This document shows positions 4,893-31,696 of a DNA stretch of 31,696 bases, one piece after another. Position 1 is the first letter of the stretch. Each line of letters begins with the position of its first letter. The notes beneath the pieces were generated by a model that had not been told where the DNA came from, did no database searches, and saw only the letters and a program-made list of their open reading frames with translations. Position numbers and translations under genes: made by a program. The stretch lies in NCBI GenBank assembly GCA_964388035.1, contig CAYLZE010000056.1:1-31696 (forward strand). Reading direction: 5' to 3'. The stretch comes from an uncultured archaeon. Lineage in GTDB: Archaea; Asgardarchaeota; Lokiarchaeia; Sigyniarchaeales; SOKP01.

Positions 4893-5010
4893 TTAGACCA
4901 TCCACTTTTTTCAATTAAATCATTTAATTCTTGAATTAGTATTCATTTAATATTTAAAATATTTTTCTCTTCAAATTAGAAAAATAAGGAAAAAACCGCG
5001 AGAAAGGTTT

Positions 5011-6630
5011 TTACTTTTTATCTCTTTGAAAAACCACTTCACCTTTGATGATAGTGGAAAGAATTTGGATGTTTTTCACTTCATTAGGAGGTGTTGTAAG
5101 TGGATTCCTGTCAAGAATGACAAAATCAGCCATTTTTCCAAGTTCAATCGTTCCTCGTACTTTTTCTTGAAAACAAGCAAATGCTGCATTAATAGTATAG
5201 AATTTTAATGCTTCTTCTATTGGAATACATTGCTCGGGAACAAATCCATTACGAGTAACCAATGCATGAAGTCCCTTAATGGGATCAGGGTCTTCAACGG
5301 GACAATCGGAGCCTGCCGCGACTATAACCCCCTCAGAAATTAAAGATTTATAGGGATAAGCCTGCTTGCTCCGTTCTTTCCCTATCCTTCTTTCGAGCCA
5401 TTTGTATTCGGAATTAAGAAAGGAAGGTTGACAAGAAGCAATAATCCCTAATTCCTTCATGTCCTTAATGACATCGTCCATTAACGAGCTGCAATGTTCG
5501 ATTCTATGGCGATGATCCTCACGAGGATAATCCTTTAAAAGTTTTTTATACATGTCCACTAACATGCGGTTTGCTTTATCTCCAATACTGTGTATCGCGA
5601 TTTGATAACCAAGATTATGGGCTTCCACCATTCTTTCATAAAGCACGTTTTTATCCACCACCAAAAATCCATTCTTTTCTGGTAGATCCGTGAAATTCTC
5701 ATACATCAAAGCCGAAGCAGACCCATAAGTTCCATCAAACCATGATTTTAACGCACCTACTTTATACTTTCCCTCTTCCTCCTTGTCATGCAATGCTGAT
5801 TTTCTTAATCTGTTAAGTTTTTTAGGAGTTTGAGTATATACCATGAAATAATAGTTTTGAAAGATTTTATCCTTAACTAATTTCATGATCGGGATCGAAA
5901 TTCCGCCAAGATTTTCCACTCCACCTTCATGATCTAGTTCAATAAGTCCGTGAACAGATGTAATGCCCTTCTCTGCCAAGCTTTGGGAAAACTTTAATGC
6001 AGCAGCATTCGTGGTCTCAGAATCGGGAGGTGGGATACTATTCATGACGAGATTGGTTGCATTTTCCGTTAAGATTCCTGTTATCTTGCCCTCCTTATTT
6101 TTCTGAATTTCTCCACCTTCTGGGACAGGTGTATTTTCATTTATTCCAAATGCCTTCAAGGCTTTACTATTTATAACGATTAAATGTCCATCGGTTCTTA
6201 AGATTCCACAGGGGTTATCCATAACAGCTTCATCTAAATCCCAACGCGTGGGAAGAACTGGAGGATTAAAATTCTGTTCATTGAAGTTTAATCCCAATAT
6301 TAACTCATCGGGTTTTTTTTGTTGCGCAGATTTTTTTAAGACGGTTTTTAATTCATCTATACTTTTTACTTCAGCCAGATCGGGAAAAATGAAATAAAAA
6401 AGAGAGCCCACGGGATGGATATGACAATCTGAAAATCCGGGAAGCATGCATGCCCCTTTTAAGTCAATGAGTTCAGTATTTTCTCCCATTTGATTTTGGA
6501 CTTCTTTTAAACTACCCGTTGCCTCAATTTTTTCATCTACGATCCCTACAGCTTCAATTATTGAATTCGCCAGATTGGAAGTCGTCATGCTTAAAATTAT
6601 ACCATTGTGAAATATTTTTTTATTAATCAT
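5011..6630 (-). CDS. Amidohydrolase 3 family, YtcJ-like (paralog 2)
   Basis: LPGFSDCHIHP, KSWFDGTYG, AIHSIGDK, HRIEHCS, GSDCPVE, GTIELGKMADFVILD; GAGGT Shine-Dalgarno upstream. Confidence 0.92.
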   Translation of the reverse strand: MINKKIFHNGIILSMTTSNLANSIIEAVGIVDEKIEATGSLKEVQNQMGENTELIDLKGACMLPGFSDCHIHPVGSLFYFIFPDLAEVKSIDELKTVLKKSAQQKKPDELILGLNFNEQNFNPPVLPTRWDLDEAVMDNPCGILRTDGHLIVINSKALKAFGINENTPVPEGGEIQKNKEGKITGILTENATNLVMNSIPPPDSETTNAAALKFSQSLAEKGITSVHGLIELDHEGGVENLGGISIPIMKLVKDKIFQNYYFMVYTQTPKKLNRLRKSALHDKEEEGKYKVGALKSWFDGTYGSASALMYENFTDLPEKNGFLVVDKNVLYERMVEAHNLGYQIAIHSIGDKANRMLVDMYKKLLKDYPREDHRHRIEHCSSLMDDVIKDMKELGIIASCQPSFLNSEYKWLERRIGKERSKQAYPYKSLISEGVIVAAGSDCPVEDPDPIKGLHALVTRNGFVPEQCIPIEEALKFYTINAAFACFQEKVRGTIELGKMADFVILDRNPLTTPPNEVKNIQILSTIIKGEVVFQRDKK

Positions 6631-6640
6631 TTTATGATTT

Positions 6641-6645
6641 ACCTC
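6641..6645 (-). promoter_or_regulatory. Shine-Dalgarno-like GAGGT upstream of amidohydrolase paralog 2
   Basis: Minus strand reads GTGAGGTAAATCATAAA-ATG. Confidence 0.5.
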
Positions 6646-6772
6646 ACTAATCAGATTAAAATAAACCTAATTTTAATTTGGATGATTATAATACAGGTAT
6701 GAATGATAATTAAATAGTTCCATATTTAACACAAAAGAAAATTAAATTATAAGTATTTGATTTACAAAATAA

Positions 6773-8374
6773 TTAATTTTTTTTATACACTGTTTTTCCT
6801 CGAATGATGGTTTCTAGAACTTGTATGTTCTTTATTTCATTATTTGGCACTTCTAGAAGATTTTTATCTAAAATTACGAAATCAGCTAATTTTCCTTCTC
6901 CAATGGACCCCTTTAGATTTTCTTCAAAACTGGCGAATGCTGCGTTAATGGTATAAGTTTTTAATGCCTCTTCAATAGAAATACATTGCTCAGGAACAAA
7001 ACCATTCCGAGTAACTAAAGCGTGTAATCCCATAATAACGGAGGGGGATTCCACAGGACAATCCGATCCAGATATGAGAGTAACTCCTGCATCAATTATG
7101 GATTTCATAGGATAGGTATATTTGCAACGTTCTTTTCCTAATCTTTTTTCCAACCAAGTATATTCTGAATTAATAAATGATGGTTGACAAGATGCAATAA
7201 TCCCTAATTCTTTCATATCTCTGATTATATCGTCAGTAAGCATGCTTGCGTGCTCAATTCTGTGTCTATGATCCGTTCTTGGAGATTCCTCAAGTAATCG
7301 CTTAAACAAATTTACCGCTATCCTATTTCCTTTATCCCCTATTACATGAATCCCAATTTGGAAACCTAAATCGTGAGCTACTTTCATTTTTTGATAAATC
7401 TCCTCCAAATCCACCACGCAGAATCCACATTTTTGGGGGTCATCCGTGAAAGGTTCATACATGCAAGCTGTTTGAGCTCCAAAGGTTCCATCCAAGAATA
7501 ATTTCAAGCAACCTAATTTAAATTGACTGTCCTCTTTTCCGAAATCTAAGGGAGGTTTCTTCTTTCGCTTAAGTTTGTTTGGGAATCGCGTGGAGAGTAA
7601 AATATACCAGTTTTGAAGGATGTTATCTTGAACTTTTTCAAAAACGGATAATTCAATGGCACCCAAATCTCCGACTTCACCACCAGGTTCTCCCTGCATT
7701 ATCCCATGAAGGGTGGTAATGCCTTGTTCTGCAAGAATTTTAAATCCTTTTTCTGCTACATTATAAATAGCATCCAAAGATGGTTTATATTTTGAAATTA
7801 TTAATTGCATTGCATTCTCGGAAAAAATACCATTTATTTTTCCATTTTCATCCTTTCTAATTTCTCCTCCTTCTGGTGATACTGTATCTTCGGTCACACC
7901 CGCCCATTCTAATGCCTTAGTATTTGCAATGCCGATATGTCCATCATACCGTAATAAAAAAACAGGATTATCAGGACACGCCTCATCTAAATCCCAGCGA
8001 GTGGGTAAGGTGGGTTTATCAAAATTCTCTTCCTTCAAACTTAATCCTAAGATAAAGGCACCTTTTTCTTTCTTACTTGTTTCTTCAGATAATAATTTCT
8101 TTAATTGTTCTAAACTTTTCACATTCGATAGTATAGGATTAACCAAGAAAAATAAAAAGAATAGAGGATGAATATGACAATCAATGAAACCAGGCATTAA
8201 GACATTGCCTTTCAAATCTATTGATTCAAAATCGCCACCTAACGTTCGCTTTACAGATTCTAAATCCCCAACTGCAATTATTTGTTCGTCAATTACACCC
8301 ACAGCACCAACTCCTTGCAATTTCTTATCCATTGTGAGTATGGGCCCGCCAAAAAACAGTTTTTTCTTTTTCAT
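6773..8374 (-). CDS. Amidohydrolase 3 family, YtcJ-like (paralog 1)
   Basis: MPGFIDCHIHP, KLFLDGTFG, GIHVIGDK, HRIEHAS, GSDCPVE, GSIGEGKLADFVILD. Confidence 0.92.
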   Translation of the reverse strand: MKKKKLFFGGPILTMDKKLQGVGAVGVIDEQIIAVGDLESVKRTLGGDFESIDLKGNVLMPGFIDCHIHPLFFLFFLVNPILSNVKSLEQLKKLLSEETSKKEKGAFILGLSLKEENFDKPTLPTRWDLDEACPDNPVFLLRYDGHIGIANTKALEWAGVTEDTVSPEGGEIRKDENGKINGIFSENAMQLIISKYKPSLDAIYNVAEKGFKILAEQGITTLHGIMQGEPGGEVGDLGAIELSVFEKVQDNILQNWYILLSTRFPNKLKRKKKPPLDFGKEDSQFKLGCLKLFLDGTFGAQTACMYEPFTDDPQKCGFCVVDLEEIYQKMKVAHDLGFQIGIHVIGDKGNRIAVNLFKRLLEESPRTDHRHRIEHASMLTDDIIRDMKELGIIASCQPSFINSEYTWLEKRLGKERCKYTYPMKSIIDAGVTLISGSDCPVESPSVIMGLHALVTRNGFVPEQCISIEEALKTYTINAAFASFEENLKGSIGEGKLADFVILDKNLLEVPNNEIKNIQVLETIIRGKTVYKKN

Positions 8375-8787: not shown

Positions 8788-11193
8788 ATGTTTAAGAAAA
8801 AATCATCCAGTGTGAAAGTAATGGAATCCCTTATAAATGAAGCATATGAGCTAAGACATCAGAATAATTTTGATCTCTCTATTACAAAATTCGAAGAGGC
8901 AATAAATCTAATTCAATCGGAATTTAAAGATCTTGAATTCATTGAAGATCAAGTTAGTAAGTTAGAAATGGAAATTATAGCTCTCTACTCTGATAAAATT
9001 AATAATATCATTCTTCAAGCAAAAGAATTAATGAAACAAGATCAATTAGAAGAAGCAAATACTCGTCTTTATGATGCTTTAGAAGTTGCGAAAAACATTA
9101 AAAATGATGAGATTAAAGACAATTTTATCCGCAACATAGAAAATTTAGTAAATCTTAATAAATTCAGGCTTGTCCTAGATAAGGCCTCTAAATTTTTGGA
9201 ACAAAATGAGTTAGAGGAAGTGAAATCTCTTTTAAAAGAGACTAAGATTCAGGTTGAAGAAGTGGCTGATTCAGAAACCAAGAGAGACATATTAAATCAA
9301 ATTCAAGAATTGGTAGATCATACATATCAAGCCAAAATTGATGAAATTTCCATAACCGCGAATGCATTAGTAGGAGAGAGCAAAAAAGACGAGGCTCTAA
9401 AGTTACTCAAGGAAAATTTTTCATCTTTAGATGAATTAATTGGTTCAAGCAGGAAGGAGGAATTTTCATTGAAGTTAAAAAAGAAAATTAATGAGATTCA
9501 TGCCCTACAGATAGAATCCATAATTAATAAATCTCAACCTTTTTTAGATCAAGGGAGCTTGATAGATCTCACGCAGTCATTAAAAGAAACCAAGGAAATT
9601 ATTGATTCCATGGAGGAAACTGAACAAAAGCAACGACAAATTCAAAAAGCAAATAAAATATTCTATCCCGTTTTCGAGAAAGAGATTAATAATTTATTTC
9701 AGAAAGGGATGGAGATCATTAAAAATGAGGATTTTGAAAAATCAACGAAAATGGTAAGTGATGCAATTCAATATTTTGTTAACGCCTTGGATTTAGCAAA
9801 TAAATTGGTAGACTCCGATTTAAAGGAAAAATTAATAACAAGAATTCAAGTCGAATTGAATCAAACATGTTCAAAAGGAATCAATACTCGAAAAGAAAAA
9901 GCAAATGAAATGGTACAGAATAAGAATTTTGAAGAAGCTATCGGTGATATCTATTCTGCTCTGAGTATTGCTAAATCTGTTGCATATGGTGATGAAGAAA
10001 GTCAACAAACGGAGGAATTAAAGAATTTTATTAATAACATTTATTCTGCTCAAATTGAAGATTTAATAGAAAATGCTAAAATCAAGCTAAATCAAGATAC
10101 CTTTGAAGAAGCAAGAGGATTATTAAATAGTGCCTTAAGCGTCACTAATAAAATGTATCTCTCAAGACAAATGGACGATGAAATTGAAAAGATCAATAAA
10201 ATGATGAGGCGCATAGAAATAAACGAAACTATCTCTAAAGGAGATATTTTATTAGAAAGTGAAAAATTCAACAAAGAATTAGAAGAACTGAGAGAGAAAT
10301 TAGAGAGTGCAGAAGCTATTGAAGACTCCGATGAGAAATACCAAGAATTACAGAATATCAAGAATCTTATTGATAATGTACATGCTTCTGAAATAACATT
10401 AATTATAGAACAAACCTTTCAACATATTAAAAGCGAGAACTATGAAGGAGCAATGCAAGAGATTGATCAAACACTATCCATCGTTCAAAAAATCGAGCTT
10501 GAAGAGAATAAAAAGAAAGAACTTGTGGAGATTTTAAAAAAGATACTTGAAATTTCCACTATATTATCAAGCAAGGAAGTATATAAAGTTGTTCCCGACT
10601 TGTTTGATAAAGCATTTGAAATAATACAATTAATGACGGAACAGGAACTCAAGGGACATAGTCTCATAGAATTAATCGATTTGATGAGTTCCTTTGGACA
10701 AAAGCTATTCGCACAAGATAAAGGAGAGAATGCTATTAAAGATTTGAAAGCAGCCTTAGTATTTTGTAAAGAATTTGAAGATGAGCAGATAAAAACAGAC
10801 TTAAGCGAAAAGGTAGAGGGAATCTTAAAGAATGGAATGATTAATATTGCAAAACAGTTAATGATTATTAAAGAATATGATAAAGTAATTGAAATTTCTA
10901 AGGATTTGATATCGATCGATGATAATTTTATTCAAGCTCATGATTACTTGGCAAATGCTTACATGCGAAGGAAAAAATATGATCTTGCGATACCAAGCTA
11001 TGAACGGGTGATAAAGTCAAATCCCGATAATTTTAAAGCGTTGATCCGTATAGGATTAATACACGAGCTAAAAGACCACATCCCCGAAGCGCTTGAATAT
11101 TATAAGCGTGCTAGTGCCATTGATTTTATGAAATTTTTACGGCAAAATCGAGAATTATATTCTGAGCTAACAAGTAATCAAAATGAGAAGTAG
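8788..11193 (+). CDS. Large alpha-helical repeat protein with C-terminal TPR repeats (801 aa)
   Basis: About ten ~55-65 aa helical repeats (A..L....F/YEEA...L..AL..A), then canonical 34-aa TPRs (AHDYLANAYMRRKKYDLAIPSYERVIKSNPDN). Confidence 0.85.
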   Translation: MFKKKSSSVKVMESLINEAYELRHQNNFDLSITKFEEAINLIQSEFKDLEFIEDQVSKLEMEIIALYSDKINNIILQAKELMKQDQLEEANTRLYDALEVAKNIKNDEIKDNFIRNIENLVNLNKFRLVLDKASKFLEQNELEEVKSLLKETKIQVEEVADSETKRDILNQIQELVDHTYQAKIDEISITANALVGESKKDEALKLLKENFSSLDELIGSSRKEEFSLKLKKKINEIHALQIESIINKSQPFLDQGSLIDLTQSLKETKEIIDSMEETEQKQRQIQKANKIFYPVFEKEINNLFQKGMEIIKNEDFEKSTKMVSDAIQYFVNALDLANKLVDSDLKEKLITRIQVELNQTCSKGINTRKEKANEMVQNKNFEEAIGDIYSALSIAKSVAYGDEESQQTEELKNFINNIYSAQIEDLIENAKIKLNQDTFEEARGLLNSALSVTNKMYLSRQMDDEIEKINKMMRRIEINETISKGDILLESEKFNKELEELREKLESAEAIEDSDEKYQELQNIKNLIDNVHASEITLIIEQTFQHIKSENYEGAMQEIDQTLSIVQKIELEENKKKELVEILKKILEISTILSSKEVYKVVPDLFDKAFEIIQLMTEQELKGHSLIELIDLMSSFGQKLFAQDKGENAIKDLKAALVFCKEFEDEQIKTDLSEKVEGILKNGMINIAKQLMIIKEYDKVIEISKDLISIDDNFIQAHDYLANAYMRRKKYDLAIPSYERVIKSNPDNFKALIRIGLIHELKDHIPEALEYYKRASAIDFMKFLRQNRELYSELTSNQNEK

Positions 11194-12865: not shown

Positions 12866-13618
12866 TTAAATTATATTTTCGATCCTTTTCCCTAATTTGT
12901 TAAGATAGAGCTCGGCCATTCCCAGGGGAACAGACTTTTCAAAGAGTAACACAATTAAAAAATCCACGCCTTCTGGGACGAGACTTATAATTTTTGAAAA
13001 GACTTTTTGACCATTTTCCAATTGATAAAATAATTCGGGTAATGCTTCCACTCCGGTCATGAATCGAATTTCTAATTCTCGCAACGAATCTAATAAAATT
13101 TGATTGGGTAATGAAGAATACACGATGTTCCCCTTCGTAGTTAATAAACACGCACCGGTAATTTCATTTTTTGAAATTTCTTCTTTAAAGAGATTGATCG
13201 CTCTAATATAAAAATCTTTATTCTTAAGGATTTCCTCTTCGCCTTTTATTATCGAATCTGAAATTGTATCCAGTTCGGGATCCTCGATTTCCTTGCAAAC
13301 ATCCAAGTATTCAGGCTTATTATACATTTGAAAGAAGACATTCATGAGCTTCTCTATCCGTGAAATTATGAAAAGTAAACTTACGGTCGTATCCGCTAGA
13401 ATCGCAAAAATAAACTTCTCTCGCTTTCTAAAAACAAACCGTAATCCGCTCATTTCAAGTACTTCCATCTTTCTAGATATGATATTTTCAGCAAAAGAAA
13501 TAATGGCAGAAAAGAATGGGGTAATTAGATTCACGTTAAGATTGAACTCGCTTGTAAAATTTCTACTGTATAAGCAACACCCTGACTGATCTAACACAAA
13601 TAATGAGTGGATTTTCAT
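12866..13618 (-). CDS. Longin-domain + roadblock-like fusion protein
   Basis: N-terminal IHSLFVLDQSGCCLYSRNF...LITPFFSAIISFAE...FIFAILAD fits the longin pattern; C-terminal ITGACLLTTKGNIVYSSLP...FLIVLLF..VPLGMAEL fits the roadblock/LAMTOR pattern. Confidence 0.75.
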   Translation of the reverse strand: MKIHSLFVLDQSGCCLYSRNFTSEFNLNVNLITPFFSAIISFAENIISRKMEVLEMSGLRFVFRKREKFIFAILADTTVSLLFIISRIEKLMNVFFQMYNKPEYLDVCKEIEDPELDTISDSIIKGEEEILKNKDFYIRAINLFKEEISKNEITGACLLTTKGNIVYSSLPNQILLDSLRELEIRFMTGVEALPELFYQLENGQKVFSKIISLVPEGVDFLIVLLFEKSVPLGMAELYLNKLGKRIENII

Positions 13619-15244: not shown

Positions 15245-16528
15245 GTGGAAATTAAAATAATACAAGAAGATTCTAACTACATGCATGGTATCATTCAGAA
15301 AATAATTGATGAATGTGGACCCCGAATGCCTTGTAGCCCTCAAGAAGCGAAATCTGCCGAGTTAATAAAAACGGAGCTTGACAAGACATGTGATGATGTC
15401 AAAATTGAGCCCTTTACTTGTGCTCCACGAGCTTTTTTAGGGTACATACGGATCATAATTCTTTTAGTGATATCCTCCTTTCTGCTATTTTTCTTGATAC
15501 CACTTGATTTGTTCTCTTTCTGGCGAGAATTAGTTGCGATCCTTTGCTTTATATTAAATGGAATAGCCTTTCTGGTCTTGTGGAATGAATTTTTTAATTA
15601 TCGTGAATTTATCGACTTTATGTTTAAAAAGAGACAATCCCAAAATGTTGTAGGAAAGATAAAAGCGAGTGAAGATTTAAGAAAAATCCTTATTTTTTCG
15701 GGACACCATGATAGCGCTCTACAATTTAATTTATTGAAGTATTTGAAAGTCTTTTACCCCATAATTATCCTTCTCGGAATCGGTATAATGCTTCTATGGT
15801 TAATAATTTCAGCAGTAATTCTGACCATATCTTTTTTCAATGAGAATGTATTTGCATTGTTTCAAGGAATGATAACTTGGCTGCTAATTATTGGACTTTT
15901 CCCCCTTGTTTGTTTATTTTTCTTTGTAAGCCCGGGCAAGGCTGCCAATAAAGTACCGGGTGCTGTAGATAATTTAAGTGCTGTTGCTATTGTATTAGGG
16001 CTTGGTAGATATCTTAGACGCAATAAAGAGATAATTCCAAAGAACATGGAGATCAGATTAATTTCATTTGGATGTGAGGAAGCAGGATTAAGAGGAGCAT
16101 ACCGGTATGTGGAAGCTCATCTCGATGAACTGAAAAAATACAATGCCGTGTGTGTAAATATGGATGCAATACAAAGTGCAGATAAAATTTCCTTTATTAA
16201 AAAGGAACCCACTACTCGAACAACTCATTCTGAATCAGTCGTTCAAAGACTCAATGACGCAGCTAAGTTATTGGGCGTAAAAGTAACTGAATCGGGATTA
16301 AGTGGATCCAGCACTTTAGAAAAAATAATAGGACAGATTACGGGTGGAACAGATGCCACAGCTTTCTCTAAATCGGGAATTGAAGCAAGTTCAATAATGT
16401 CCATAAATTTGTTGCAAATGACAAAATTTTATCATCAACCAACCGATACATTAGACAAGATCGAGAAAGGAGCTTTAGAACAGGTTTTAAAAATCTTAAT
16501 TGGTTTTCTAAGTTTAAATGAAAACTAA
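15245..16528 (+). CDS. M28-family zinc peptidase with inserted transmembrane segments
   Basis: GHHDS, GAVDNLSAV, FGCEEAGLRG, NMD, GGTDATAF and YHQPTD motifs, plus two hydrophobic hairpins. Confidence 0.88.
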   Translation: MEIKIIQEDSNYMHGIIQKIIDECGPRMPCSPQEAKSAELIKTELDKTCDDVKIEPFTCAPRAFLGYIRIIILLVISSFLLFFLIPLDLFSFWRELVAILCFILNGIAFLVLWNEFFNYREFIDFMFKKRQSQNVVGKIKASEDLRKILIFSGHHDSALQFNLLKYLKVFYPIIILLGIGIMLLWLIISAVILTISFFNENVFALFQGMITWLLIIGLFPLVCLFFFVSPGKAANKVPGAVDNLSAVAIVLGLGRYLRRNKEIIPKNMEIRLISFGCEEAGLRGAYRYVEAHLDELKKYNAVCVNMDAIQSADKISFIKKEPTTRTTHSESVVQRLNDAAKLLGVKVTESGLSGSSTLEKIIGQITGGTDATAFSKSGIEASSIMSINLLQMTKFYHQPTDTLDKIEKGALEQVLKILIGFLSLNEN

Positions 16529-16750: not shown

Positions 16751-17950
16751 TCACATTTCTGTTTTAAGCTTCCATTCTGTTCCACACTGACCACAGCGGT
16801 ATTTTTTCCCGTACATTCTCGGATAAGCCATGATTATGTTGGTTTTATCCAATTCTTCATGGATTTTATTGCGATTTGTGTTCCCGCATGCGGGGCATCT
16901 ACGATGTCCATCTGCATCAGATACAATCAGAGTTTCCTTTTTTGCTTCAAATCCTGATGAAGTTCCTGATTCGAGTGGGCTTAAGAATTCAGCTTTTTCC
17001 ATTAGCAATTCTTTTTCTACTACTGGGGCGATTTTTTCTGTAATATCTTCCGTCTCAAGGTCTTCGATCGGAGCATTCCCTAACTCTTTTTGCAGAGCTA
17101 AAATTTCAGATGGTTTTACCGTGCTTTCTTCATCTAATTCTGCGCCTAATTTCGTGGTTGCTACTAAGAATTCTTTGTATTCTTTTTCTATTGGTTCATG
17201 AGAAATAGTCTTGGGAGCTTCTTTTGCCAACCTTGCTTTCTCCAATTTCTTATTAAGTAGAAAATTGTCCTTTCTCAACTGGTTATTTTTTTCTTTCAAT
17301 AGTTCAAGTTCTTCTCTTAAGTCTTCTTCGCTGGTTTTAGAAGTTGCATTAGCAAGGGAAGCTTCTAGCGTTTGAACTCGATCTGTAAGCTCTTCTATTT
17401 GAGCTTTATATCTTTTCTTTTCCTCCACTAATTCATTTAACCGTTCGATATCGGGTGTGTGGGATTGAGATTGACTTTTGAGAACTTCGATTTCTTTTTT
17501 GTAATCTTCATTTGTTTCCATCATTTGTTTTACAATTTTCTTTGAATTTTCTTCATTCAGCTTATACAGCTTGTTTTCTTCCGTTAATTGGAGAAGTAAT
17601 TGCCGGGCATTTTCTAATTCTTCAACTTTTTCAGAGGGAGGTTCTTGTTGGGAAAAGGATTCGATTTTTGTTCTTAAAGAAATAATTTCCTTGGTTAATG
17701 CTTCAATTTCGTTTTCTTTTTCCTCTATTTCCTGTCTTTTTTTAATAATCATGTCCTTTAATATCTGAACATCGGGTGGGATATTAGACTCGATTTTATC
17801 TTGTTGTTCTATCAGAACATTTTGCTCTTCTATTATGCTTTTTAACTTGATGACTTCTTCACTCAGAGCATCAAACTGTTGTTCTAGATCTATTCTCGTC
17901 TGCGTTTCTTCTTCGATACTTTCGATTTGATCTTTTATTTCTTTACTCAT
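16751..17950 (-). CDS. Coiled-coil protein with C-terminal zinc ribbon
   Basis: About 240 aa of E/K/Q/L heptad-rich sequence, an acidic linker, then CPACG...CGQCGTEW. Confidence 0.85.
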   Translation of the reverse strand: MSKEIKDQIESIEEETQTRIDLEQQFDALSEEVIKLKSIIEEQNVLIEQQDKIESNIPPDVQILKDMIIKKRQEIEEKENEIEALTKEIISLRTKIESFSQQEPPSEKVEELENARQLLLQLTEENKLYKLNEENSKKIVKQMMETNEDYKKEIEVLKSQSQSHTPDIERLNELVEEKKRYKAQIEELTDRVQTLEASLANATSKTSEEDLREELELLKEKNNQLRKDNFLLNKKLEKARLAKEAPKTISHEPIEKEYKEFLVATTKLGAELDEESTVKPSEILALQKELGNAPIEDLETEDITEKIAPVVEKELLMEKAEFLSPLESGTSSGFEAKKETLIVSDADGHRRCPACGNTNRNKIHEELDKTNIIMAYPRMYGKKYRCGQCGTEWKLKTEM

Positions 17951-19693: not shown

Positions 19694-20869
19694 ATGGAAA
19701 AAACTTCAAAAAGTAAGATCGATCCGACGGGAAGGGATATGATAGACTTCATAAAAAAGGTTTGTAATAATATAGGGCCCCGAATTGGAGGTTCTGAACA
19801 AGAAAAGGAAGCGGGAAACTTAATACATGAAGAAATGTCTAAATTTTGCGATGAGGTGGAAAAACAGGAATTTGAGTGTCATCCTGGGGGATTTTTAGAT
19901 TATATCTGGTTTACCGCACTTTTTTACGTCTTAGGCGTTATTAGTTATTTCTTCATGCCACTTCTTACTGTTATCTTTATATTAGTCGGAATTCTTCTCT
20001 ATTTTGCTCAGCAATGTCTAACTTTAGAAATTATTGATTTTGTCTTTCCTAAAATAGACTCTTTTCATGTTATTGGTAAAATAAAACCGAAGAATGAGGC
20101 TGAAAACCTGGTTTTATTAGGCGGTCATCATGATTCCGCCTATGAGTTTCCGCTTCTTAGTAAATTAGGAGGAAAATCGACTTATCTAATCATGTTAGCC
20201 TTATTGATAACGATCTTGAACATAATAATGGCTGCGATAAAAATTTTCATAGCTATTCCGTTGTTAGATCTCATTCAAATAATCTTATTCATAATTGGAA
20301 CACCATTAATTTTGATTATTGCTAAATTTTTACGATCAAATGTGGTAGTAATGGGTGCTAATGACAATCTAACCGCAGTTGCCGCATTATTAGAAATTGG
20401 GAAATATTTCTCTAAAAGTGAAAACAGACCTAAAAAGACTGATGAAGAGCACATGAGAGGGTCAAAACGCTTTGTTTCTACGAATAAGAAGGAGCTTAAA
20501 GACCGTGGTGCAATGTTATTCAACATGGAATGCTTGAGCGGAGATTCTTTTCTTTTAGGAACCGCAGAAACTCTATTTTTTGCAAAACATTCCCAAAAAG
20601 TAGTTAATATTGGTAAAAAAGCTGCGGAAGATTTAGGAATTGAAATAGAAGTGGGACCACTCACATTTGCGGGCAGTGATTCTGCTAATTTCTCTCGAAA
20701 AGGATTGGATGCAACAACCTTATTCGGAATCGCTAAAAAGGGGACACCTAATGATTGGCATACCAAGCGGGATGTTCCTGAAAGATTAGATGGAGGAAAA
20801 ATAGCTAAGGGAGCGGGAATTGCTTTACGTTTCGTTGAGTTGGTTGATGAGAGTGAAACTAAGAATTAA
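19694..20869 (+). CDS. M28-family peptidase with TM insertions, apparently missing ~8 residues before the EE motif
   Basis: GHHDSA, GANDNLTAV, EE, GSDSANF and WHT..D motifs. Reads PKKTDEE where the paralog reads PKNMEIRLISFGCEE. Confidence 0.82.
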   Translation: MEKTSKSKIDPTGRDMIDFIKKVCNNIGPRIGGSEQEKEAGNLIHEEMSKFCDEVEKQEFECHPGGFLDYIWFTALFYVLGVISYFFMPLLTVIFILVGILLYFAQQCLTLEIIDFVFPKIDSFHVIGKIKPKNEAENLVLLGGHHDSAYEFPLLSKLGGKSTYLIMLALLITILNIIMAAIKIFIAIPLLDLIQIILFIIGTPLILIIAKFLRSNVVVMGANDNLTAVAALLEIGKYFSKSENRPKKTDEEHMRGSKRFVSTNKKELKDRGAMLFNMECLSGDSFLLGTAETLFFAKHSQKVVNIGKKAAEDLGIEIEVGPLTFAGSDSANFSRKGLDATTLFGIAKKGTPNDWHTKRDVPERLDGGKIAKGAGIALRFVELVDESETKN

Positions 20870-21133: not shown

Positions 21134-22063
21134 GTGAGTGAAAATAAAAAAATTTCGCAGAAAAAGATATTCAGATACATGAAAACAGATAAAGATTTTT
21201 TTAAAAATCTTAATCGAATTAAGAATAAAAAACAAAAAAAGATCGTGGATGTTCCAAGACCCTTCGTAAAATGGGCGGGAGGAAAGAGGCAGATTATCAA
21301 TCGCATGGATAGATTTTTTCCAGAAGAATTTGATACTTATATTGAACCTTTTTTAGGGGGAGGAGCAATATTTTTTTATTTACTGCCGTCAAAAGCAATT
21401 TTAATTGATATCAATCCCGAATTGATCAATACCTATCAAGTAATACAAGAAGATGTTGTAAAACTAAGTGAATCTCTCAAAAAGCATGAGAATGAGAAAG
21501 AATATTATTATAAACTTCGTAATATAGATAGAAATTTGGAGGAATTCAATAAATGGTCCAAAATTGAAAAAGCTTCAAGAACCATTTATTTAAATAGGTG
21601 TTGCTATAATGGCTTGTATCGTGTAAACAGTAAGGGGCAGTACAATGTTCCTTTTGGCAAGTACAAGAATCCAAATTTTTGCGACGAGAAAAATCTATGG
21701 GCAGTACATGAGGCATTAAAAAATGTTAAAATTATTCAAGGGGGGTTTGAGAGAGTCTTAGAGTTTGCCGAGAAAGGAGATTTTATATATTTTGACCCGC
21801 CCTATCATCCGCTTTCGGAGACATCTAATTTTACCAGTTATACAAAATTTGATTTCGGAAAGGAATCGCAAATAAGACTTTTTGAAGTATTTAAGGAACT
21901 GGATAAGAAAGGATGCAAGCTATTGTTAAGCAATTCCTATAATGAATTCATTATCAAGTTATATAAAGATTATAAAATTGTTACCATCAATGCAAAGCGA
22001 GCCATCAATAGTGATGCATCCAAACGTGGGAAGATAAAAGAAGTTTTAGTAATGAATTCTTGA
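21134..22063 (+). CDS. dam: Dam-family (D12 class) N6-adenine DNA methyltransferase
   Basis: KWAGGK, YIEPFLGGG, IYLNRCCYNGLYRVNSKGQYNVPFG, DPPY catalytic motif, LSNS. GATC specificity is inferred from the family. Confidence 0.93.
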   Translation: MSENKKISQKKIFRYMKTDKDFFKNLNRIKNKKQKKIVDVPRPFVKWAGGKRQIINRMDRFFPEEFDTYIEPFLGGGAIFFYLLPSKAILIDINPELINTYQVIQEDVVKLSESLKKHENEKEYYYKLRNIDRNLEEFNKWSKIEKASRTIYLNRCCYNGLYRVNSKGQYNVPFGKYKNPNFCDEKNLWAVHEALKNVKIIQGGFERVLEFAEKGDFIYFDPPYHPLSETSNFTSYTKFDFGKESQIRLFEVFKELDKKGCKLLLSNSYNEFIIKLYKDYKIVTINAKRAINSDASKRGKIKEVLVMNS

Positions 22064-22752
22064 AAGAACATGTAAGAATGGTTAAAATGTCAGTGGCACA
22101 GAAAAAAAAATTATTTGTCAAGCTCCTCTTGGACTGGTTTAAAGAAAATAAACGCAACTTTTATTGGAGAGTTCATGAATTGACCCCTTTTCAGATGTTA
22201 ATAGCAGAGATGATGCTTCAAAAAACAAATGCTAATCAAGTAGAAAAATTACTTCCAGACTTCATAAAAAAATATCCTGATCCACAAAGTATTTGTAAAT
22301 TAGATTTATTAGAGTTAGCTGAGATATTACAACCTTTAGGATTATTTAATCGCCGAGCGAGAGATTTAAGAAAAACAGCCCAATATCTTTTAGAGCATGA
22401 TAAAATCATTCCCACCACAAAAAAGGAATTAAAAAGTTTACCGGGGGTAGGAGATTATATTGCTAATGCGCTTCTATGCTTTGCGTTTAATAAGCCGGTT
22501 CCGATCATAGACGCCAATGTTGGGCGCGTTATTAAGAGGGTATTTTCATTCCCAGTTAAGAGTGCCCCTTCTCGGGATAAGAAGCTTGAAGAATTCATGC
22601 AAGGTTTATTGCCAAAAGAAAATTATAAAGAATTTAATTTAGCAATTTTGGATTTAGCTGCCTTAATCTGCACTCCGACATCTCCTGCTTGTGAAGACTG
22701 TCCTTTATTAAGCATAAGTGATTTCGGACAAAAAGCACGATCCTCCAAATAA
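22060..22752 (+). CDS. HhH-GPD DNA glycosylase, MutY/Mig (T:G mismatch)-like
   Basis: IAEMMLQKT, PLGL..RRA, HhH LPGVGDY, catalytic IDANV, C-terminal C-X6-C-X2-C-X5-S. TTG start overlaps the dam TGA. Confidence 0.88.
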   Translation: MKEHVRMVKMSVAQKKKLFVKLLLDWFKENKRNFYWRVHELTPFQMLIAEMMLQKTNANQVEKLLPDFIKKYPDPQSICKLDLLELAEILQPLGLFNRRARDLRKTAQYLLEHDKIIPTTKKELKSLPGVGDYIANALLCFAFNKPVPIIDANVGRVIKRVFSFPVKSAPSRDKKLEEFMQGLLPKENYKEFNLAILDLAALICTPTSPACEDCPLLSISDFGQKARSSK

Positions 22753-22827
22753 AATATATAAGAAAAGGGAATTAATCGTTGGTCATAAAGCAAAGGATCG
22801 ATAATTAGAATAAAAAAAATCAAACGG

Positions 22828-24054
22828 ATGGTCATATTGTATAATATTATTGATTTATTTGCCGGATGTGGTGGATTTAGTGAAGGTTTTAAACTAGAAG
22901 GTTTTCAAGTCATAGCAGCCAATGAATTTTGGGAGCCAGCTATCGAGACTTATAAATATAATCATGGAAGTACAAGATTGATCGAAGGAGATATAACTTT
23001 AAAAGAAATTAAGCAACAAATATATGATTCTGTTAAAGATGAAAAAATTAATGTCATTATTGGTGGACCTCCCTGCCAAGCTTATTCCATTTCAGGAAAT
23101 AGAAATCCCGATGACCCAAGAGGCAAATTATATTTAGACTTTATTGAGATGGTGGACCATGTAAAGCCGGACTTCTTTATAATGGAAAATGTGAAGGGAT
23201 TAATTCACATGAAGCACCTCAATCCCCATCTTTCAAAAAAAGGATTAGCAGCATTTAAAGATCAGTGTTCTAAATTACAGAGATATAAAGATTTGAAAAG
23301 GTATAAGGCACAGAGAGAATTAAATGAAGAGGAAGAAAAAGATTATTCTACAATAGAAAAAGAGATAAAGTCGATTAAAAAAGAGATTAATAAAAATTTA
23401 ATCCCTCTCTTGGATATAATTTTAGAGAAAATGAGGGAGATTAATTATAAAGTTGAATGGAGAGTTCTTAATGCCGCCAATTATGGAGTTCCTCAGACGA
23501 GAGAACGAATAATCTTCATTGGCACGAAACACGAACAATATCCCATTAATTTTCCAAAAATGACTCATTTCAATGGAGATATCCAAACCACGATAAATGA
23601 ATTTTCAGAAGAAAGAGACGGGGGAAGTAAAAAAAAGGCTTGGAATACTGCGGGAGAAACCTTGAAAAAGTATGAAAAGTGGCCTGAAGTTCCAGAAAAA
23701 AATCACTTATTTACCAAACATTCCAAAACATTCATTCAAAAACTACACGATACCCCTATTGGAGAAACAGTGTATAAAAATTATAGTGATGCATGGCGGA
23801 GACTAGATCCCAAAAAACCCGCTAAAACCGTGAAAGAAAATCACGGCGGCGTTTTTGTGCATTTTGAACTAGATAGGGTTTGTACTCCCCGGGAACTAGC
23901 CGCTTTACAATCTTTCAGCGATTCTTTTATTTTTAGAGGCACTAAAAGTTCGATACTGAAACAGATAGGGAACGCGGTTCCTCCTTTATTAGCTAAAGCA
24001 ATAGGAAAACAAGTTAAATCCGATTTAGATCGAATTTATGGAAAAACACTATAA
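22828..24054 (+). CDS. DNA (cytosine-5) methyltransferase
   Basis: Motif I DLFAGCGG, IV GGPPCQ, VI ENV, VIII PQTRER, IX RELAALQSF, X QIGNAVPP. Confidence 0.95.
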   Translation: MVILYNIIDLFAGCGGFSEGFKLEGFQVIAANEFWEPAIETYKYNHGSTRLIEGDITLKEIKQQIYDSVKDEKINVIIGGPPCQAYSISGNRNPDDPRGKLYLDFIEMVDHVKPDFFIMENVKGLIHMKHLNPHLSKKGLAAFKDQCSKLQRYKDLKRYKAQRELNEEEEKDYSTIEKEIKSIKKEINKNLIPLLDIILEKMREINYKVEWRVLNAANYGVPQTRERIIFIGTKHEQYPINFPKMTHFNGDIQTTINEFSEERDGGSKKKAWNTAGETLKKYEKWPEVPEKNHLFTKHSKTFIQKLHDTPIGETVYKNYSDAWRRLDPKKPAKTVKENHGGVFVHFELDRVCTPRELAALQSFSDSFIFRGTKSSILKQIGNAVPPLLAKAIGKQVKSDLDRIYGKTL

Positions 24055-24892: not shown

Positions 24893-25189
24893 ATGAACTT
24901 AAATAAAACTCGAATTCTCAGAATTTTAACAGATATAAAAGGAGAACTGAGTTCTAAATATAAAGTAAAGCAAGTAGGATTATTTGGTTCATATATTAAA
25001 AATGTTCAAGAAGAATCAAGCGATATAGATTTTCTAGTAGAATTCGAGGAGGATGCAGATTTATTTCATTATATTGGTCTTATCTTATTTCTCGAAGAAA
25101 AATTTAACCGAAGAGTTGATGTTATTTCTAAACCAGCATTAAAAGAAGATTTGAGAGATATTATTTTACACGAGGTTGTTTACGTTTAA
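24893..25189 (+). CDS. Minimal nucleotidyltransferase (MNT/MntA-type antitoxin family)
   Basis: 98 aa; GLFGSY...SDIDFLVEF and LEEKFNRRVDVI motifs. Confidence 0.88.
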   Translation: MNLNKTRILRILTDIKGELSSKYKVKQVGLFGSYIKNVQEESSDIDFLVEFEEDADLFHYIGLILFLEEKFNRRVDVISKPALKEDLRDIILHEVVYV

Positions 25190-28269: not shown

Positions 28270-30321
28270 ATGATAAATTATAAAAAAATTCAATTCGTTA
28301 TATTCTACGGCATTCTATTTTTCTTGTTGATAGAATCATTTAGCAACATGATGGTTGACACGAATGCACACGTATTCATGAATCTCTCGCAGATTCAAAT
28401 GATTTTGCCATCGATTATAATTTTACTAATAATAATATTCGCCGAGATTATACTCTTTTATAAAAAGTCAATTGATCTTAAATATAAACCCTATATCTTA
28501 GTATATCTCATCTCAGGTATCCGGCTTCTCGCTCAATTCATTATTTTTCCTCCAATTATCATGATTCTTAATTATTCTCTTTTTTTCTCAATAGTCTTGC
28601 TCTTTATTGATTTAATCCCTTTCATGGAATCACATAATGTTGATTTTGACTTCCTAACGTTTTTATTTGGCATTTCAGTCGGAATAGGAATCCAATTAAT
28701 ATTCCTAATGCTTAATGTATCCTTGGATTTGACAAGTGATCCTATTAAAATCATTCCCATCATGGTTTTTGTGGCTTTTCTTCTGATTACAAATTGGCAA
28801 TTCCTACATCCTAAAATTTTTGAAGAATATCCTCAAAAAGTAAAAAATGTAAATGAAACAGCCCCAAGGAAGGAAATTTCATTCTTTCACTTCATTGTTT
28901 TCGGTATTTTATTTCTCTTATCCTTAACTTGGGCAATTAATCCCATGGCTCTTTCTGCTTATGACTTGTTAGACCGTTCTTACAATCACCTTATTGGAGG
29001 TACTATTCATTGGATCTCTTACGGGTTTACCTATTACATATTTATAATAGCCGGAACCGCATTCATTAGCAGTATTCTTGCGTTTAAAGCAATCTCGACT
29101 AAATCCTACAAGTTCATGATAAAGCTAATCATTTTCTCCATGGTAATTTCTTCTCTATTAAATGGACTTGCTTATTTCATTATTGAAAATCCCATAATTG
29201 GATTATCTACCTTCTATATAACCCTCTTAGTAATTGTGAATGTATTCTCGATAATTACCTACTTTTCATTTTGCTTTTCCTTTTATTCGTTTCAAAACAG
29301 GAAGAAGCTTTATTTAGGATTGGTGGTGTTCTTCTTTACATGTTTCTTTTTTATCATTTTACAGGTTGAAATTATATGGTATGAATATTTATCGCTGTTA
29401 ATTAACGATATTATCATTCTGTCTGTTAGTGGAACCGTGCTCATAATCATTTTAGAGCTCAAACATTTCAACTTGGATATGAAACTTAAAGAAATTAAAT
29501 GGGAAAAGGAATTTCATATTCCAGTAATATACGCAATATTTTTAATTCTTCTATTTATCTCTTTTGGAGTAATCATGAGTGAGAGAATTCCAACGCCCAA
29601 CCCTAGACCATCCCCCAAATTTATGACTTTTAATATACATAATGCAATTGGGGTGGATGACGTGTTTGATCCCAGTAGAATTGTAGATACAATAAAGGAA
29701 AATGATCCCGATATTTTAGGATTGAATGAGGTAGATTTAGGAGCATTAAAAACATCCTTTGCAGATTTAACCTCGTATTTTGCTCATAATCTTAACATGT
29801 ATTATTTTTACGGATATACTTTTTACAAGCATTATGGTAATGCACTTTTTAGTAAATATCCAATAAAATCGGCCGAAATCATTCACTTACCTCAAGCAGT
29901 ACAATCTACAGAACCCAGATCCTTGATCAAAGCAAAAATTGAAATAGGAAATGATATTTGGACTGTGTATATAACGCATCTCTCCACAAACGAGGAGGAT
30001 CGCCTCGTGCAGGTTCCCTATATTCTTTCAATAATTAGTCAAGAGCAAAAAGTTAACAAAGTTGTATGGATGGGGGATTTTAATTTAATACCGAGTTCAG
30101 AAGAATATCAGTTCATTCAGACTTCATCATTACATCTGATTGACACGTATCCCTATCTGCATAAATCAGATCCCGGATATACGGGCGATTATAATGATAA
30201 TTACAGCCCAACAAAAAGGATTGATTACATTACATGTTCTCCAGATTTAACCCCCCAAACTAGCTATATTTACTGTTCAATTGCTTCTGATCATTGCTCA
30301 GTCATAACTGAATTTACTTGA
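28270..30321 (+). CDS. Polytopic membrane protein with C-terminal EEP (endonuclease/exonuclease/phosphatase) domain, Cwh43/PGAP2IP-like
   Basis: About 13 hydrophobic segments in aa 1-437, then TFNIH, LNEVD, GNALFSKYPI, THL, GDFN, IDYI and SDH. Confidence 0.85.
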   Translation: MINYKKIQFVIFYGILFFLLIESFSNMMVDTNAHVFMNLSQIQMILPSIIILLIIIFAEIILFYKKSIDLKYKPYILVYLISGIRLLAQFIIFPPIIMILNYSLFFSIVLLFIDLIPFMESHNVDFDFLTFLFGISVGIGIQLIFLMLNVSLDLTSDPIKIIPIMVFVAFLLITNWQFLHPKIFEEYPQKVKNVNETAPRKEISFFHFIVFGILFLLSLTWAINPMALSAYDLLDRSYNHLIGGTIHWISYGFTYYIFIIAGTAFISSILAFKAISTKSYKFMIKLIIFSMVISSLLNGLAYFIIENPIIGLSTFYITLLVIVNVFSIITYFSFCFSFYSFQNRKKLYLGLVVFFFTCFFFIILQVEIIWYEYLSLLINDIIILSVSGTVLIIILELKHFNLDMKLKEIKWEKEFHIPVIYAIFLILLFISFGVIMSERIPTPNPRPSPKFMTFNIHNAIGVDDVFDPSRIVDTIKENDPDILGLNEVDLGALKTSFADLTSYFAHNLNMYYFYGYTFYKHYGNALFSKYPIKSAEIIHLPQAVQSTEPRSLIKAKIEIGNDIWTVYITHLSTNEEDRLVQVPYILSIISQEQKVNKVVWMGDFNLIPSSEEYQFIQTSSLHLIDTYPYLHKSDPGYTGDYNDNYSPTKRIDYITCSPDLTPQTSYIYCSIASDHCSVITEFT

Positions 30322-30368: not shown

Positions 30369-31696
30369 ATGTTTTTAGAAAAACTTAGAGCAATCAAAGG
30401 GAAGAGGTGGCTACTATTTTCCTGCATTTATTTAACCAATTTTTCCATTTTCATTTTATTTTTACTTATATTGCAGCCGTATTGGGGAGAAATAAACAGC
30501 ACCGTTTCGGATTGGTTTGGAATTAATCTCAATCTTATCTTGGTCTTATTTTTCATTTTTTTAGCTCCTCTCCTCTATATCCTTACCTTAATCCTTCAAT
30601 CTTTGAGAATGATACGCATGCAATTAGAGATTTCCATATCAAAATTAAATAAAATCCTTCCCTTGATCCTTACCATAGTTTTTAATCTATTAGTGGTATT
30701 GCTCTTAATTGAATTGGGGGGATATTCCTTGTTAATTCCTCAGTTCATGGAATTTTATAGCATTTTTATTTATCTAGCTATCCAAGGGCTGCTCATTATA
30801 TTTCTTTATCCTCTAATTCGAGCACTTCCACAGCTCAAATTCAATCTTTCCAATAAAATCATGAGCGCCAAGAAAAAAAGTGTAATCATCATTGCATGTC
30901 TATTAGGCAGTTATATCTTTATATTCGCTTCACCCTTCCTTTTTGTACCGGCAAATGTATATTCAAACGAATTACCCATAAAACCAGACGTTATTGCTCA
31001 TAGGGGTGGAGCGTATCTTGGTCCTGAAAACACGCTCTTGGCTGTAGAAGCTTCCCTTCAATTTAATATTGTCGGGTGGGAAGTTGATATCCAAATCAGC
31101 AAGGATGGAATACCCTTTTTGATGCACGATAATACCCTCACCAGAACTACAAATGTTGAAGATGTATTTCCCGATCGCAAGAATGACCCCGCGGAATCTT
31201 TTACCATGGCAGAGTTAAAAAAATTGGATGCGGGATCTTGGTTCGTGGAAAAAGACCCTTATGGAGTAATTAGAGAAGGAATCATCAGTACTGAACAAGC
31301 AGAATCTTATAGAGGGGCTAAAATTCCCACTTTCCAGGAAGTATTACAATTTACCAAAGCTCATGATATATATCTTGATTTTGACATGAAATCACCTTCT
31401 CAAGATCACCCTTTCCACGATAGATATTTTAACATTATTTTGGACATGACAATTCATTCCGGAATCGATTTAAGTAAAGTAATGATACCTACTACCAATA
31501 AGAATGTTATTAACTTGATAATGTATAGAAATGCAAATGAAATTTTAACGGGTTATGAGTATATTAATACGGGGGATGAATATTCAAACGAAGAATATAG
31601 GTCCTTCCATGCCGAAAATTTCCCCGTCATGGTCTATACTATTGACTCGGTAGAGCGATTCTGTGAACTATGGTGTTTAGGGGTGACGTGGGTTAA
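30369..31696 (+). CDS. Membrane-anchored glycerophosphodiester phosphodiesterase, GDE2/GDE3/GDE6-like (3' truncated by window end)
   Basis: Hand-translated open frame from ATG 30369 to the window end: five TM segments, then KPDVIAHRGG..GPENT, WEVDIQISKDGIPFLMHD.TL.RTTN, LDAGSWF, IPTFQEVL and VYTID. Confidence 0.9.
   Translation, partial: MFLEKLRAIKGKRWLLFSCIYLTNFSIFILFLLILQPYWGEINSTVSDWFGINLNLILVLFFIFLAPLLYILTLILQSLRMIRMQLEISISKLNKILPLILTIVFNLLVVLLLIELGGYSLLIPQFMEFYSIFIYLAIQGLLIIFLYPLIRALPQLKFNLSNKIMSAKKKSVIIIACLLGSYIFIFASPFLFVPANVYSNELPIKPDVIAHRGGAYLGPENTLLAVEASLQFNIVGWEVDIQISKDGIPFLMHDNTLTRTTNVEDVFPDRKNDPAESFTMAELKKLDAGSWFVEKDPYGVIREGIISTEQAESYRGAKIPTFQEVLQFTKAHDIYLDFDMKSPSQDHPFHDRYFNIILDMTIHSGIDLSKVMIPTTNKNVINLIMYRNANEILTGYEYINTGDEYSNEEYRSFHAENFPVMVYTIDSVERFCELWCLGVTWV

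Follow-up and report, generated by a model that had tools for sequence, protein, structure and literature searches.

The window analyzed here, a stretch of 31,696 bp, has the same extent as the contig (C56) to which it belongs, in a host genome of 5.47 Mb with about 33% GC. The end of the contig cuts through a gene for a membrane-bound GDPD (Table 1). The open reading frame (ORF) starts with an ATG at 30369 and has a coding span of 30369-31694 on the plus strand; no stop codon occurs before the contig ends, which probably accounts for the absence of the ORF from the track of called genes. The two final bases, AA, are compatible with a Lys after GVTWV, as in the GVTWVKTN of homologues. Judged by these homologues, the missing C-terminal part consists of the end of the barrel, a P-W linker, the sixth transmembrane (TM) helix and a basic tail. 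No overlapping contig that would extend the gene was found in the genome, and a scan for promoters and terminators gave results at chance level. The closest homologue (P0003/L001, from Promethearchaeota Meg22_1012_Bin_233) belongs to the same genus, which makes the host an Asgard archaeon of the Lokiarchaeia type; this homologue is 66% identical, 495 aa long and has the sixth TM helix. A eukaryotic or otherwise foreign contig was ruled out: the neighboring genes are of archaeal type, the GC content is 36% versus 33% in the genome, and the gene order is the same in genome G162.

Table 1. Features of the GDPD gene and its upstream neighbor (positions in the window).
Feature	Position	Strand	Basis or remark
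Cwh43/PGAP2IP-like gene, upstream and co-oriented	28270..30321	+	13 TM + EEP domain; 47-bp gap to GDPD gene
Six-TM GDE2/3/6-type GDPD gene	30369..31696	+	442 codons; cut by contig end, ~50 aa missing
N-terminal five-TM module	30408..30944	+	hydropathy, model helices, K/R counts, match to animal TM-module profile
GDPD TIM-barrel catalytic domain, predicted extracellular	30972..31694	+	aa 202-442+; PF03009, PDB GlpQ/UgpQ by sequence and fold
His211-Arg212 of HRG	30999..31004	+	invariant in alignments; counterpart of GDE3 H229/R230 and GDE2 H233
Glu238-x-Asp240 metal ligands and second catalytic His253-Asp254	31080..31130	+	invariant in Asgard, Chloroflexota, animal and canonical rows
LDAGSWF..DP motif and ~18-residue insert after it	31224..31313	+	common to animals, Chloroflexota and some soluble prokaryotic GDPDs
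FDMKSPSQDHPF: Asp339 as third metal ligand, then P..HP; mark of the six-TM family	31380..31415	+	alignments
LWCLGV = W..G motif of the six-TM family	31668..31685	+	motif counts

The rest of the window carries a mixed set of genes. On the minus strand are three tandem paralogues of about 535 aa (3270-8374), the first of them Amidohydro_3; an Asgard longin-like protein of 250 aa (12866-13618) with weak longin-type Pfam matches (Fuz_longin_1, Clat_adaptor_s, Sybindin; E 0.02-0.05); and a coiled-coil protein with a C-terminal CxxC zinc ribbon (16751-17950). The plus strand encodes a dual-specificity phosphatase (732-1235), a long helical-repeat protein with C-terminal TPRs (8788-11193) and two membrane M28 peptidases (15245-16528 and 19694-20869), the second apparently without the GCEE-motif stretch of the first, by internal deletion or assembly error. 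Further along the same strand a Dam-type methyltransferase, an HhH-GPD glycosylase and a C5 methyltransferase are consecutive (21134-24054), and no restriction enzyme was seen; similar genes flank a GDPD locus (L057) from the same genus. A minimal nucleotidyltransferase of the MNT type (24893-25189, +) has no HEPN partner among the ORFs of at least 80 aa.

According to the preliminary description, the ORF at 30369-31696 encodes five TM helices followed by a GDPD domain. This is confirmed by Kyte-Doolittle hydropathy and Pfam, with His211 in place, and the six motifs quoted there were all found, starting at residues 202, 247, 286, 338, 363 and 434. PF03009 is the only Pfam family matched (E 1e-23, 85.1 bits against a cut-off of 23.6), and the fold of the domain matches GlpQ (E 1e-12). 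The GlpQ/UgpQ models are also the best matches in NCBIfam, although the ORF scores far below their cut-off. Residues H211, R212, E238, D240, H253 and D254 are invariant across the groups compared, and the catalytic residue set of the ORF is intact. The roles of the E-x-D metal ligands and of the second catalytic His are established GDPD enzymology. By analogy with this chemistry, a divalent metal held at Glu238, Asp240 and Asp339 would bind the phosphodiester, and His211 and His253 would serve as general base and acid. The counterparts of His211 and Arg212 in GDE3 are essential, as H229A and R230A are inactive (PMC5576486; PMC11314389). Four other short GDPD matches occur in the host genome (contigs C13, C23 and C27), two of them 2 kb apart on C13; the match on C27 begins in a TM stretch.

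Three elements had been singled out in the preliminary description as foreign to GlpQ/UgpQ. For P..HP and W..G this holds, as both are nearly confined to the six-TM family, its Chloroflexota members included: W..G occurs in 54/59 Asgard, 18/19 Chloroflexota and 17/24 animal rows, in 1/83 canonical rows and in 0/20 soluble rows that carry the insert. It does not hold for the WF..DP insert. None of the 83 canonical GDPDs has it, but 19 of 20 short single-domain prokaryotic GDPDs do, and the insert is therefore not a eukaryote-like mark. The third metal ligand is another distinction. The canonical motif (I/V)E(I/L)K has a Glu where the ORF has Asp339; the Asp is invariant in the Asgard and Chloroflexota alignments and nearly so in animals, while the EIK-type motif is present in 58/83 canonical and 16/20 soluble-insert rows.

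The hydropathy profile has five peaks, all N-terminal to His211, and the five TM helices lie at about residues 14-34, 52-76, 96-114, 129-151 and 172-192. The sequence of the ORF itself ends before a sixth helix. Full-length homologues are about 490-515 aa long, and nearly all have a single TM C-terminal to the domain besides the five in front of it, so that the sixth helix anticipated earlier does exist in the family; in these homologues, which include the 66%-identical protein, the segment matches animal TM6 (P 98%). The basic segments of the ORF protein (N-terminus, loop 2 and loop 4) are assigned to the inside and its acidic loops, 1 and 3, to the outside. The same pattern extends over 59 Asgard rows: each inside segment (N-terminus, loop 2, loop 4, C-tail) has 3-6 K/R and each outside loop fewer than one, with means of 4.1, 4.6, 6.2 and 3.0 per inside segment versus 0.5 and 0.9 outside. 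This charge bias indicates that the barrel faces outward. N-x-S/T sequons are enriched in the Asgard ectodomain (216 versus 132±10 in shuffled sequences), which we take as supporting evidence only because the rows are related and thus not independent; the ectodomains of animals are likewise enriched (110 versus 55) and those of Chloroflexota depleted (13 versus 28). The sole sequon of the ORF protein is N43 in outer loop 1, with none in the sequenced part of the ectodomain, and STT3 is present in the host genome. We predict with high confidence an N-in/C-in topology, with the barrel anchored at the outer side of the membrane. The positive-inside pattern and the family-wide sequon enrichment agree with the outside position proposed beforehand for the catalytic domain, which is a prediction in both cases. 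The AlphaFold model of the closest homologue is confident (pLDDT 94.6, pTM 0.91).

Next we consider the relationship to the animal enzymes. Named animal GDPD5/GDPD2 proteins align with query residues 12-442 in an exhaustive phmmer search (E about 1e-37 to 1e-48), the Asgard and animal profiles align end to end over 492 columns (E 4.6e-99), and an HMM built from animal rows gives a match with E 7e-90. The TM module alone, as a family profile, matches that of animals in hhalign with P 98%, E 1.7e-13 and a score of 86; shuffled columns reach at most 17.6 and unrelated membrane proteins 12-17. Even the module of the single ORF protein matches the animal module (P 82%, E 1e-5). The model of the closest homologue matches a wholly eukaryotic, mostly Chordata Atlas cluster with a TM score of 0.82. 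Searching the Atlas features for the TM module by itself brought no usable match and was uninformative. With soluble and canonical GDPDs as outgroup, the six-TM proteins including those of animals form a single clade (100/100). The protein is clearly set apart from GlpQ/UgpQ and from bacterial membrane GDPDs of the PF10110 type (hhalign P 0.1% for the TM region of the latter, TM score about 0.5 for the whole chain), and none of the outcomes named beforehand as refuting occurred.

These data leave hardly any room for the reading that a standard GDPD of the GlpQ/UgpQ kind is joined to an unrelated membrane anchor and resembles the animal proteins by hydrophobic convergence. It is true that the best PDB and NCBIfam matches are bacterial GlpQ/UgpQ proteins, in libraries that yielded no six-TM GDE structure. 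However, the NCBIfam scores are far below cut-off, and the TM-module match far above both kinds of control, the chordate model match and the common clade refute this reading. The likeness to animal GDPD5/GDPD2 is thus real, far above chance and extends over the whole length, the N-terminal TM region and TM6 included. Because the profile, TM-module, model and clade evidence agree, the structural reading in the preliminary description is right: the protein is a member of the six-TM GDE2/3/6 lineage, with five TMs, a GDPD domain and, in its homologues, one further TM, in a family of three clades. Our main reading, with a probability of roughly 0.7, is that the ORF is a prokaryotic member of this lineage that acts as an outward-facing phosphodiesterase on lipid-derived substrates.

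The six-TM family was found in 64 of 400 Asgard genomes, in 22 of 85 genera and at least three classes. The Asgard carriers comprise six Lokiarchaeia families, f13 (14/31 genomes), f18 (2/12, not Lokiarchaeia) and f31. Family f13 is Heimdallarchaeaceae, as its genome G021 is JAEOTG01, listed as Heimdallarchaeaceae YT1_048 in the supplement of PMC10307638; f31 is Thorarchaeia by likeness to a named protein, and a Kariarchaeaceae member came from a separate look-up. Ca. Lokiarchaeum ossiferum carries a six-TM GDPD (P0099). The NCBI label 'Hodarchaeota' of P0066 is distrusted, since an identical protein occurs in G199, which GTDB places in the family of the ORF host. Several Lokiarchaeia have tandem or multiple paralogues, at L004 and L005 (G255:C45, G268:C42) and in G136, G140, G142 and G150; an internal TGA occurs in one of the G150 copies.

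Eukaryotic carriers are animals, Chromosphaera (Ichthyosporea), Mastigamoeba (Amoebozoa) and further protists, the latter recognized by neighboring genes (eEF1A, Sec23, tubulin and the like). Plants and fungi had no member among the matches listed, and a search with a protist profile added only animals and canonical GDPDs. The Mastigamoeba balamuthi protein (P0134, EukProt; 886 aa) has three nearly identical GDPD repeats, which either arose by tandem duplication or reflect a fused gene model. The bacterial carriers, with the 5+1 TM layout, form a deep clade, among whose members are Brevefilum, Anaerolineales and other Chloroflexota records. With the Asgard or Chloroflexota model they were found in 3 of 401 genomes of the phylum and 2 of 401 of the class, the seed genome included; as these searches rate just a few candidates in each genome, copies can be missed. 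Two six-TM members from this phylum (L064, L065; genomes G627, G576) have lost the DP insert after LDAGSWF and lie after a DegV gene, opposite a GH94 phosphorylase.

The phylogenetic relationship was analyzed with a full-length tree of 42 rows (LG+C20 PMSF) and a domain-only tree rooted on soluble GDPDs. Partial rows and P0247 were left out, as were the long-branch P0171 and P0140 in the careful trees; P0255, P0258, P0197 and P0257 were counted as eukaryotic by their position in the tree and are not named records. In the full-length tree the Asgard (100/99), Chloroflexota (100/100) and eukaryotic (94/86) proteins form three separate clades. Of the trees, as called for in the preliminary description, the one with other GDPDs as outgroup sets the family apart from them, and the full-length one does not place the eukaryotes within Asgard. 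The best rooted domain-only tree pairs Chloroflexota with eukaryotes, weakly (62/88), and AU tests reject neither Asgard plus eukaryotes (p-AU 0.29) nor Asgard plus Chloroflexota (p-AU 0.48). A grouping of eukaryotes with Heimdallarchaeia was rejected in three tests (p-AU 0.0013, 0.00025 and 3e-13), which also force long-branch protists together. The root test with the non-reversible NQ.pfam model was uninformative, with the leading 60 or so root positions within about 5 log units. In a tree of the TM module only, Chloroflexota stand on a stem of about 2.0, and eukaryotes and Asgard form one unresolved group. The animal-trained HMM gives the same picture for the TM module (median 21 bits in Asgard versus -1 in Chloroflexota) and the opposite one for the catalytic domain (259 bits in Chloroflexota versus 214 in Asgard); both patterns can come from differences in rate. 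Within the Asgard clade, L041 and L042 from f18 nest inside the Lokiarchaeia family f3 (support 97-99), which suggests transfer between Asgard classes.

The protein had been put forward as a possible eukaryotic signature protein (ESP). In the strict form of that idea the six-TM fusion would have been born in Asgard archaea, inherited vertically by eukaryotes and transferred to a few Chloroflexota. The alternative is a bacterial origin, in which a soluble GDPD with the insert gave rise to the fusion in or near Chloroflexota and the fusion then reached Asgard and early eukaryotes by separate moves, or a later transfer was common to eukaryotes and Chloroflexota. The distribution favors the former: the gene is broad in Asgard and very patchy in Chloroflexota, and its presence in animals, Ichthyosporea, Amoebozoa and further protists fits inheritance, though no Hodarchaeales member is established and plants and fungi are missing among the matches listed. 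The domain data pull the other way, both in the score of the Chloroflexota domains on the animal model and in the maximum likelihood pairing of eukaryotes with Chloroflexota; that pairing is weak, however, and Asgard-eukaryote sisterhood passes the AU test. The TM module is much nearer to animals in Asgard and most divergent of the three in Chloroflexota. Vertical descent from Asgard has to accommodate an Asgard clade that is monophyletic without eukaryotes, the rejection of Heimdallarchaeia as partners (p-AU ≤0.0013) and the internal transfer within the Asgard subtree, while the bacterial reading can draw on the deep, diverse Chloroflexota clade, on nearest outgroups that are short prokaryotic GDPDs bearing the same insert, and on the adjoining Cwh43-like gene, whose look-alikes are likewise dominated by Chloroflexota.

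Given its breadth in Asgard, its rarity in Chloroflexota and the Asgard-leaning TM module, we put the Asgard origin at roughly even odds, a shade below rather than above, and the same holds for the broader statement that eukaryotes got the six-TM GDPD from the Asgard line, whatever its substrate. The bacterial origin is possible, at somewhat worse than even odds; for the eukaryotic copies the alternatives are a source in the Chloroflexota branch, an acquisition alongside that branch, or some other route. The six-TM GDPD is old in Asgard. It is not a clean ESP, because Anaerolineae-type Chloroflexota (Brevefilum, Anaerolineales) carry the same full-length 5+1 TM protein, though rarely, and the eukaryotes fall outside the Asgard clade. 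GDE2/3/6 have been studied as animal enzymes. Open-access papers yielded no account of a six-TM GDE from a prokaryote, and PDB searches by sequence and fold brought up no solved six-TM structure. The known animal subfamily thus has a prokaryotic branch that is apparently unpublished, and the Asgard proteins are a candidate, not an established, ESP. As an animal-looking Asgard protein can be common to Chloroflexota, it should be listed as an ESP only with that caveat. The compact archaeal protein is a practical model for structure and ancestral substrate.

The genomic context gives some indication of function. The upstream Cwh43-like gene has its nearest Atlas clusters among those rich in Chloroflexota and Thermoplasmatota, then in fungal PGAP2IP (score 0.96), and matches occur in 35 of 161 Lokiarchaeia genomes, nearly all of the host's family. 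After the GDPD it is the second membrane-lipid enzyme here whose spread covers Asgard, Chloroflexota and eukaryotes. A conserved module of the two genes was considered and rejected: they are adjacent only in the host genome and G162, both of one genus, lie on different contigs in 8 other genomes, and many genomes hold only one of them. No neighbor conserved across Asgard families was found; an MFS_2 sugar transporter adjoins three Asgard-side loci. The Chloroflexota copies lie upstream of PfkB and PTS genes in an operon or downstream of DegV, contexts that point to the scavenging of lipid-derived headgroups. That such catabolic neighbors come mostly from the bacterial branch counts against the explanation we favor, in which the protein likely faces outward and works as a metal-dependent phosphodiesterase on headgroups derived from lipids, perhaps on inositol; the substrate is a guess. 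On balance it would act at the cell surface on lipid-derived phosphodiesters, either deacylated or lyso-phospholipids or the headgroups of ether lipids, and its role would be the scavenging or remodeling of polyol- or sugar-phosphate headgroups. Archaeal G1P ether lipids may not fit the GDPD site. Inositol headgroups are a tentative first guess by analogy, because the animal enzymes prefer them and the host makes inositol-1-phosphate; its genome encodes inositol-1-phosphate synthase and six CDP-alcohol phosphatidyltransferases. GDE3 is a Ca2+-dependent ectoenzyme that hydrolyses glycerophosphoinositol and lyso-PI, besides GPI anchors (PMC11314389). GDE2 and GDE3 differ in substrate and in the side of cleavage, so that homology fixes neither for the ORF protein.

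A bolder explanation is a proto-GPI sheddase that would cut inositol-glycolipid anchors of Asgard surface proteins, in concert with the upstream Cwh43-like remodelase. GDE2/3/6 cleave GPI anchors (PMC5576486), an Asgard affinity has been claimed for GPI-synthesis enzymes in a preprint (PMC12338589), the remodelase-like gene is 47 bp away and the host synthesizes inositol. We nevertheless regard this as improbable, as the adjacency is limited to two genomes of one genus, the Chloroflexota copies are in sugar-uptake operons, and no peptidase C13 (Gpi8-like transamidase) was found in the host genome; searches there for Gaa1 and Gpi16 were blank, had no positive control and do not count as absence. 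Slightly less probable again is that GDE2/3/6 descend directly from the Asgard protein and that the latter already sheds surface proteins by cleaving such anchors; if this were true, regulated anchor shedding would predate eukaryotes. The archaeal protein lets one ask whether surface inositol lipids were cleaved before GPI anchors existed.

Compared with known systems, the protein shares with bacterial and archaeal GlpQ/UgpQ (B. subtilis GlpQ 5T91, T. tengcongensis 2PZ0 and the S. aureus lysophosphatidylglycerol PLD 8GHH) the TIM-barrel fold and the site of two His and a metal; those enzymes, at about 20-25% identity, are soluble or singly anchored, have Glu in place of Asp as third ligand and lack P..HP and W..G. 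Bacterial membrane GDPDs with PF10110 (GPDPase_memb) also have a multi-TM region followed by a GDPD domain, but this TM region shows no detectable relation (whole-chain TM 0.49-0.50), and PF10110 gave neither a Pfam nor a profile match in the ORF. Animal GDE2 (GDPD5), GDE3 (GDPD2) and GDE6 (GDPD4) have the same arrangement of 5 TM, ecto-GDPD and 1 TM. They also share HRG, E-x-D, HD, RTTN..FP, the WF..DP insert, FD..P..HP, W..G, the P-W..Y..W before TM6, the sequon-rich ectodomain of the family and the predicted fold. The identity to them is only 25-36%. The Asgard proteins lack the Cys-rich cytosolic N-terminus and the long C-tail, have PAN after TM5 where the animal enzymes have SPC, and in the subclade of the ORF show a deletion of about 12-20 aa late in the barrel; archaea have no known GPI-anchored substrate. 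Their clade is separate and orthologous to no single animal paralogue. The apparently undescribed Chloroflexota six-TM GDPDs (Brevefilum, Anaerolineales; for example P0167, P0304, P0366) have an identical 5+1 TM layout and the same motifs, with a more divergent TM module, depleted sequons, PfkB-PTS often downstream or DegV adjoining, and a rare occurrence in the phylum. The ORF protein scores 311 bits with the Chloroflexota model and slightly lower, 288 bits, with the animal model.
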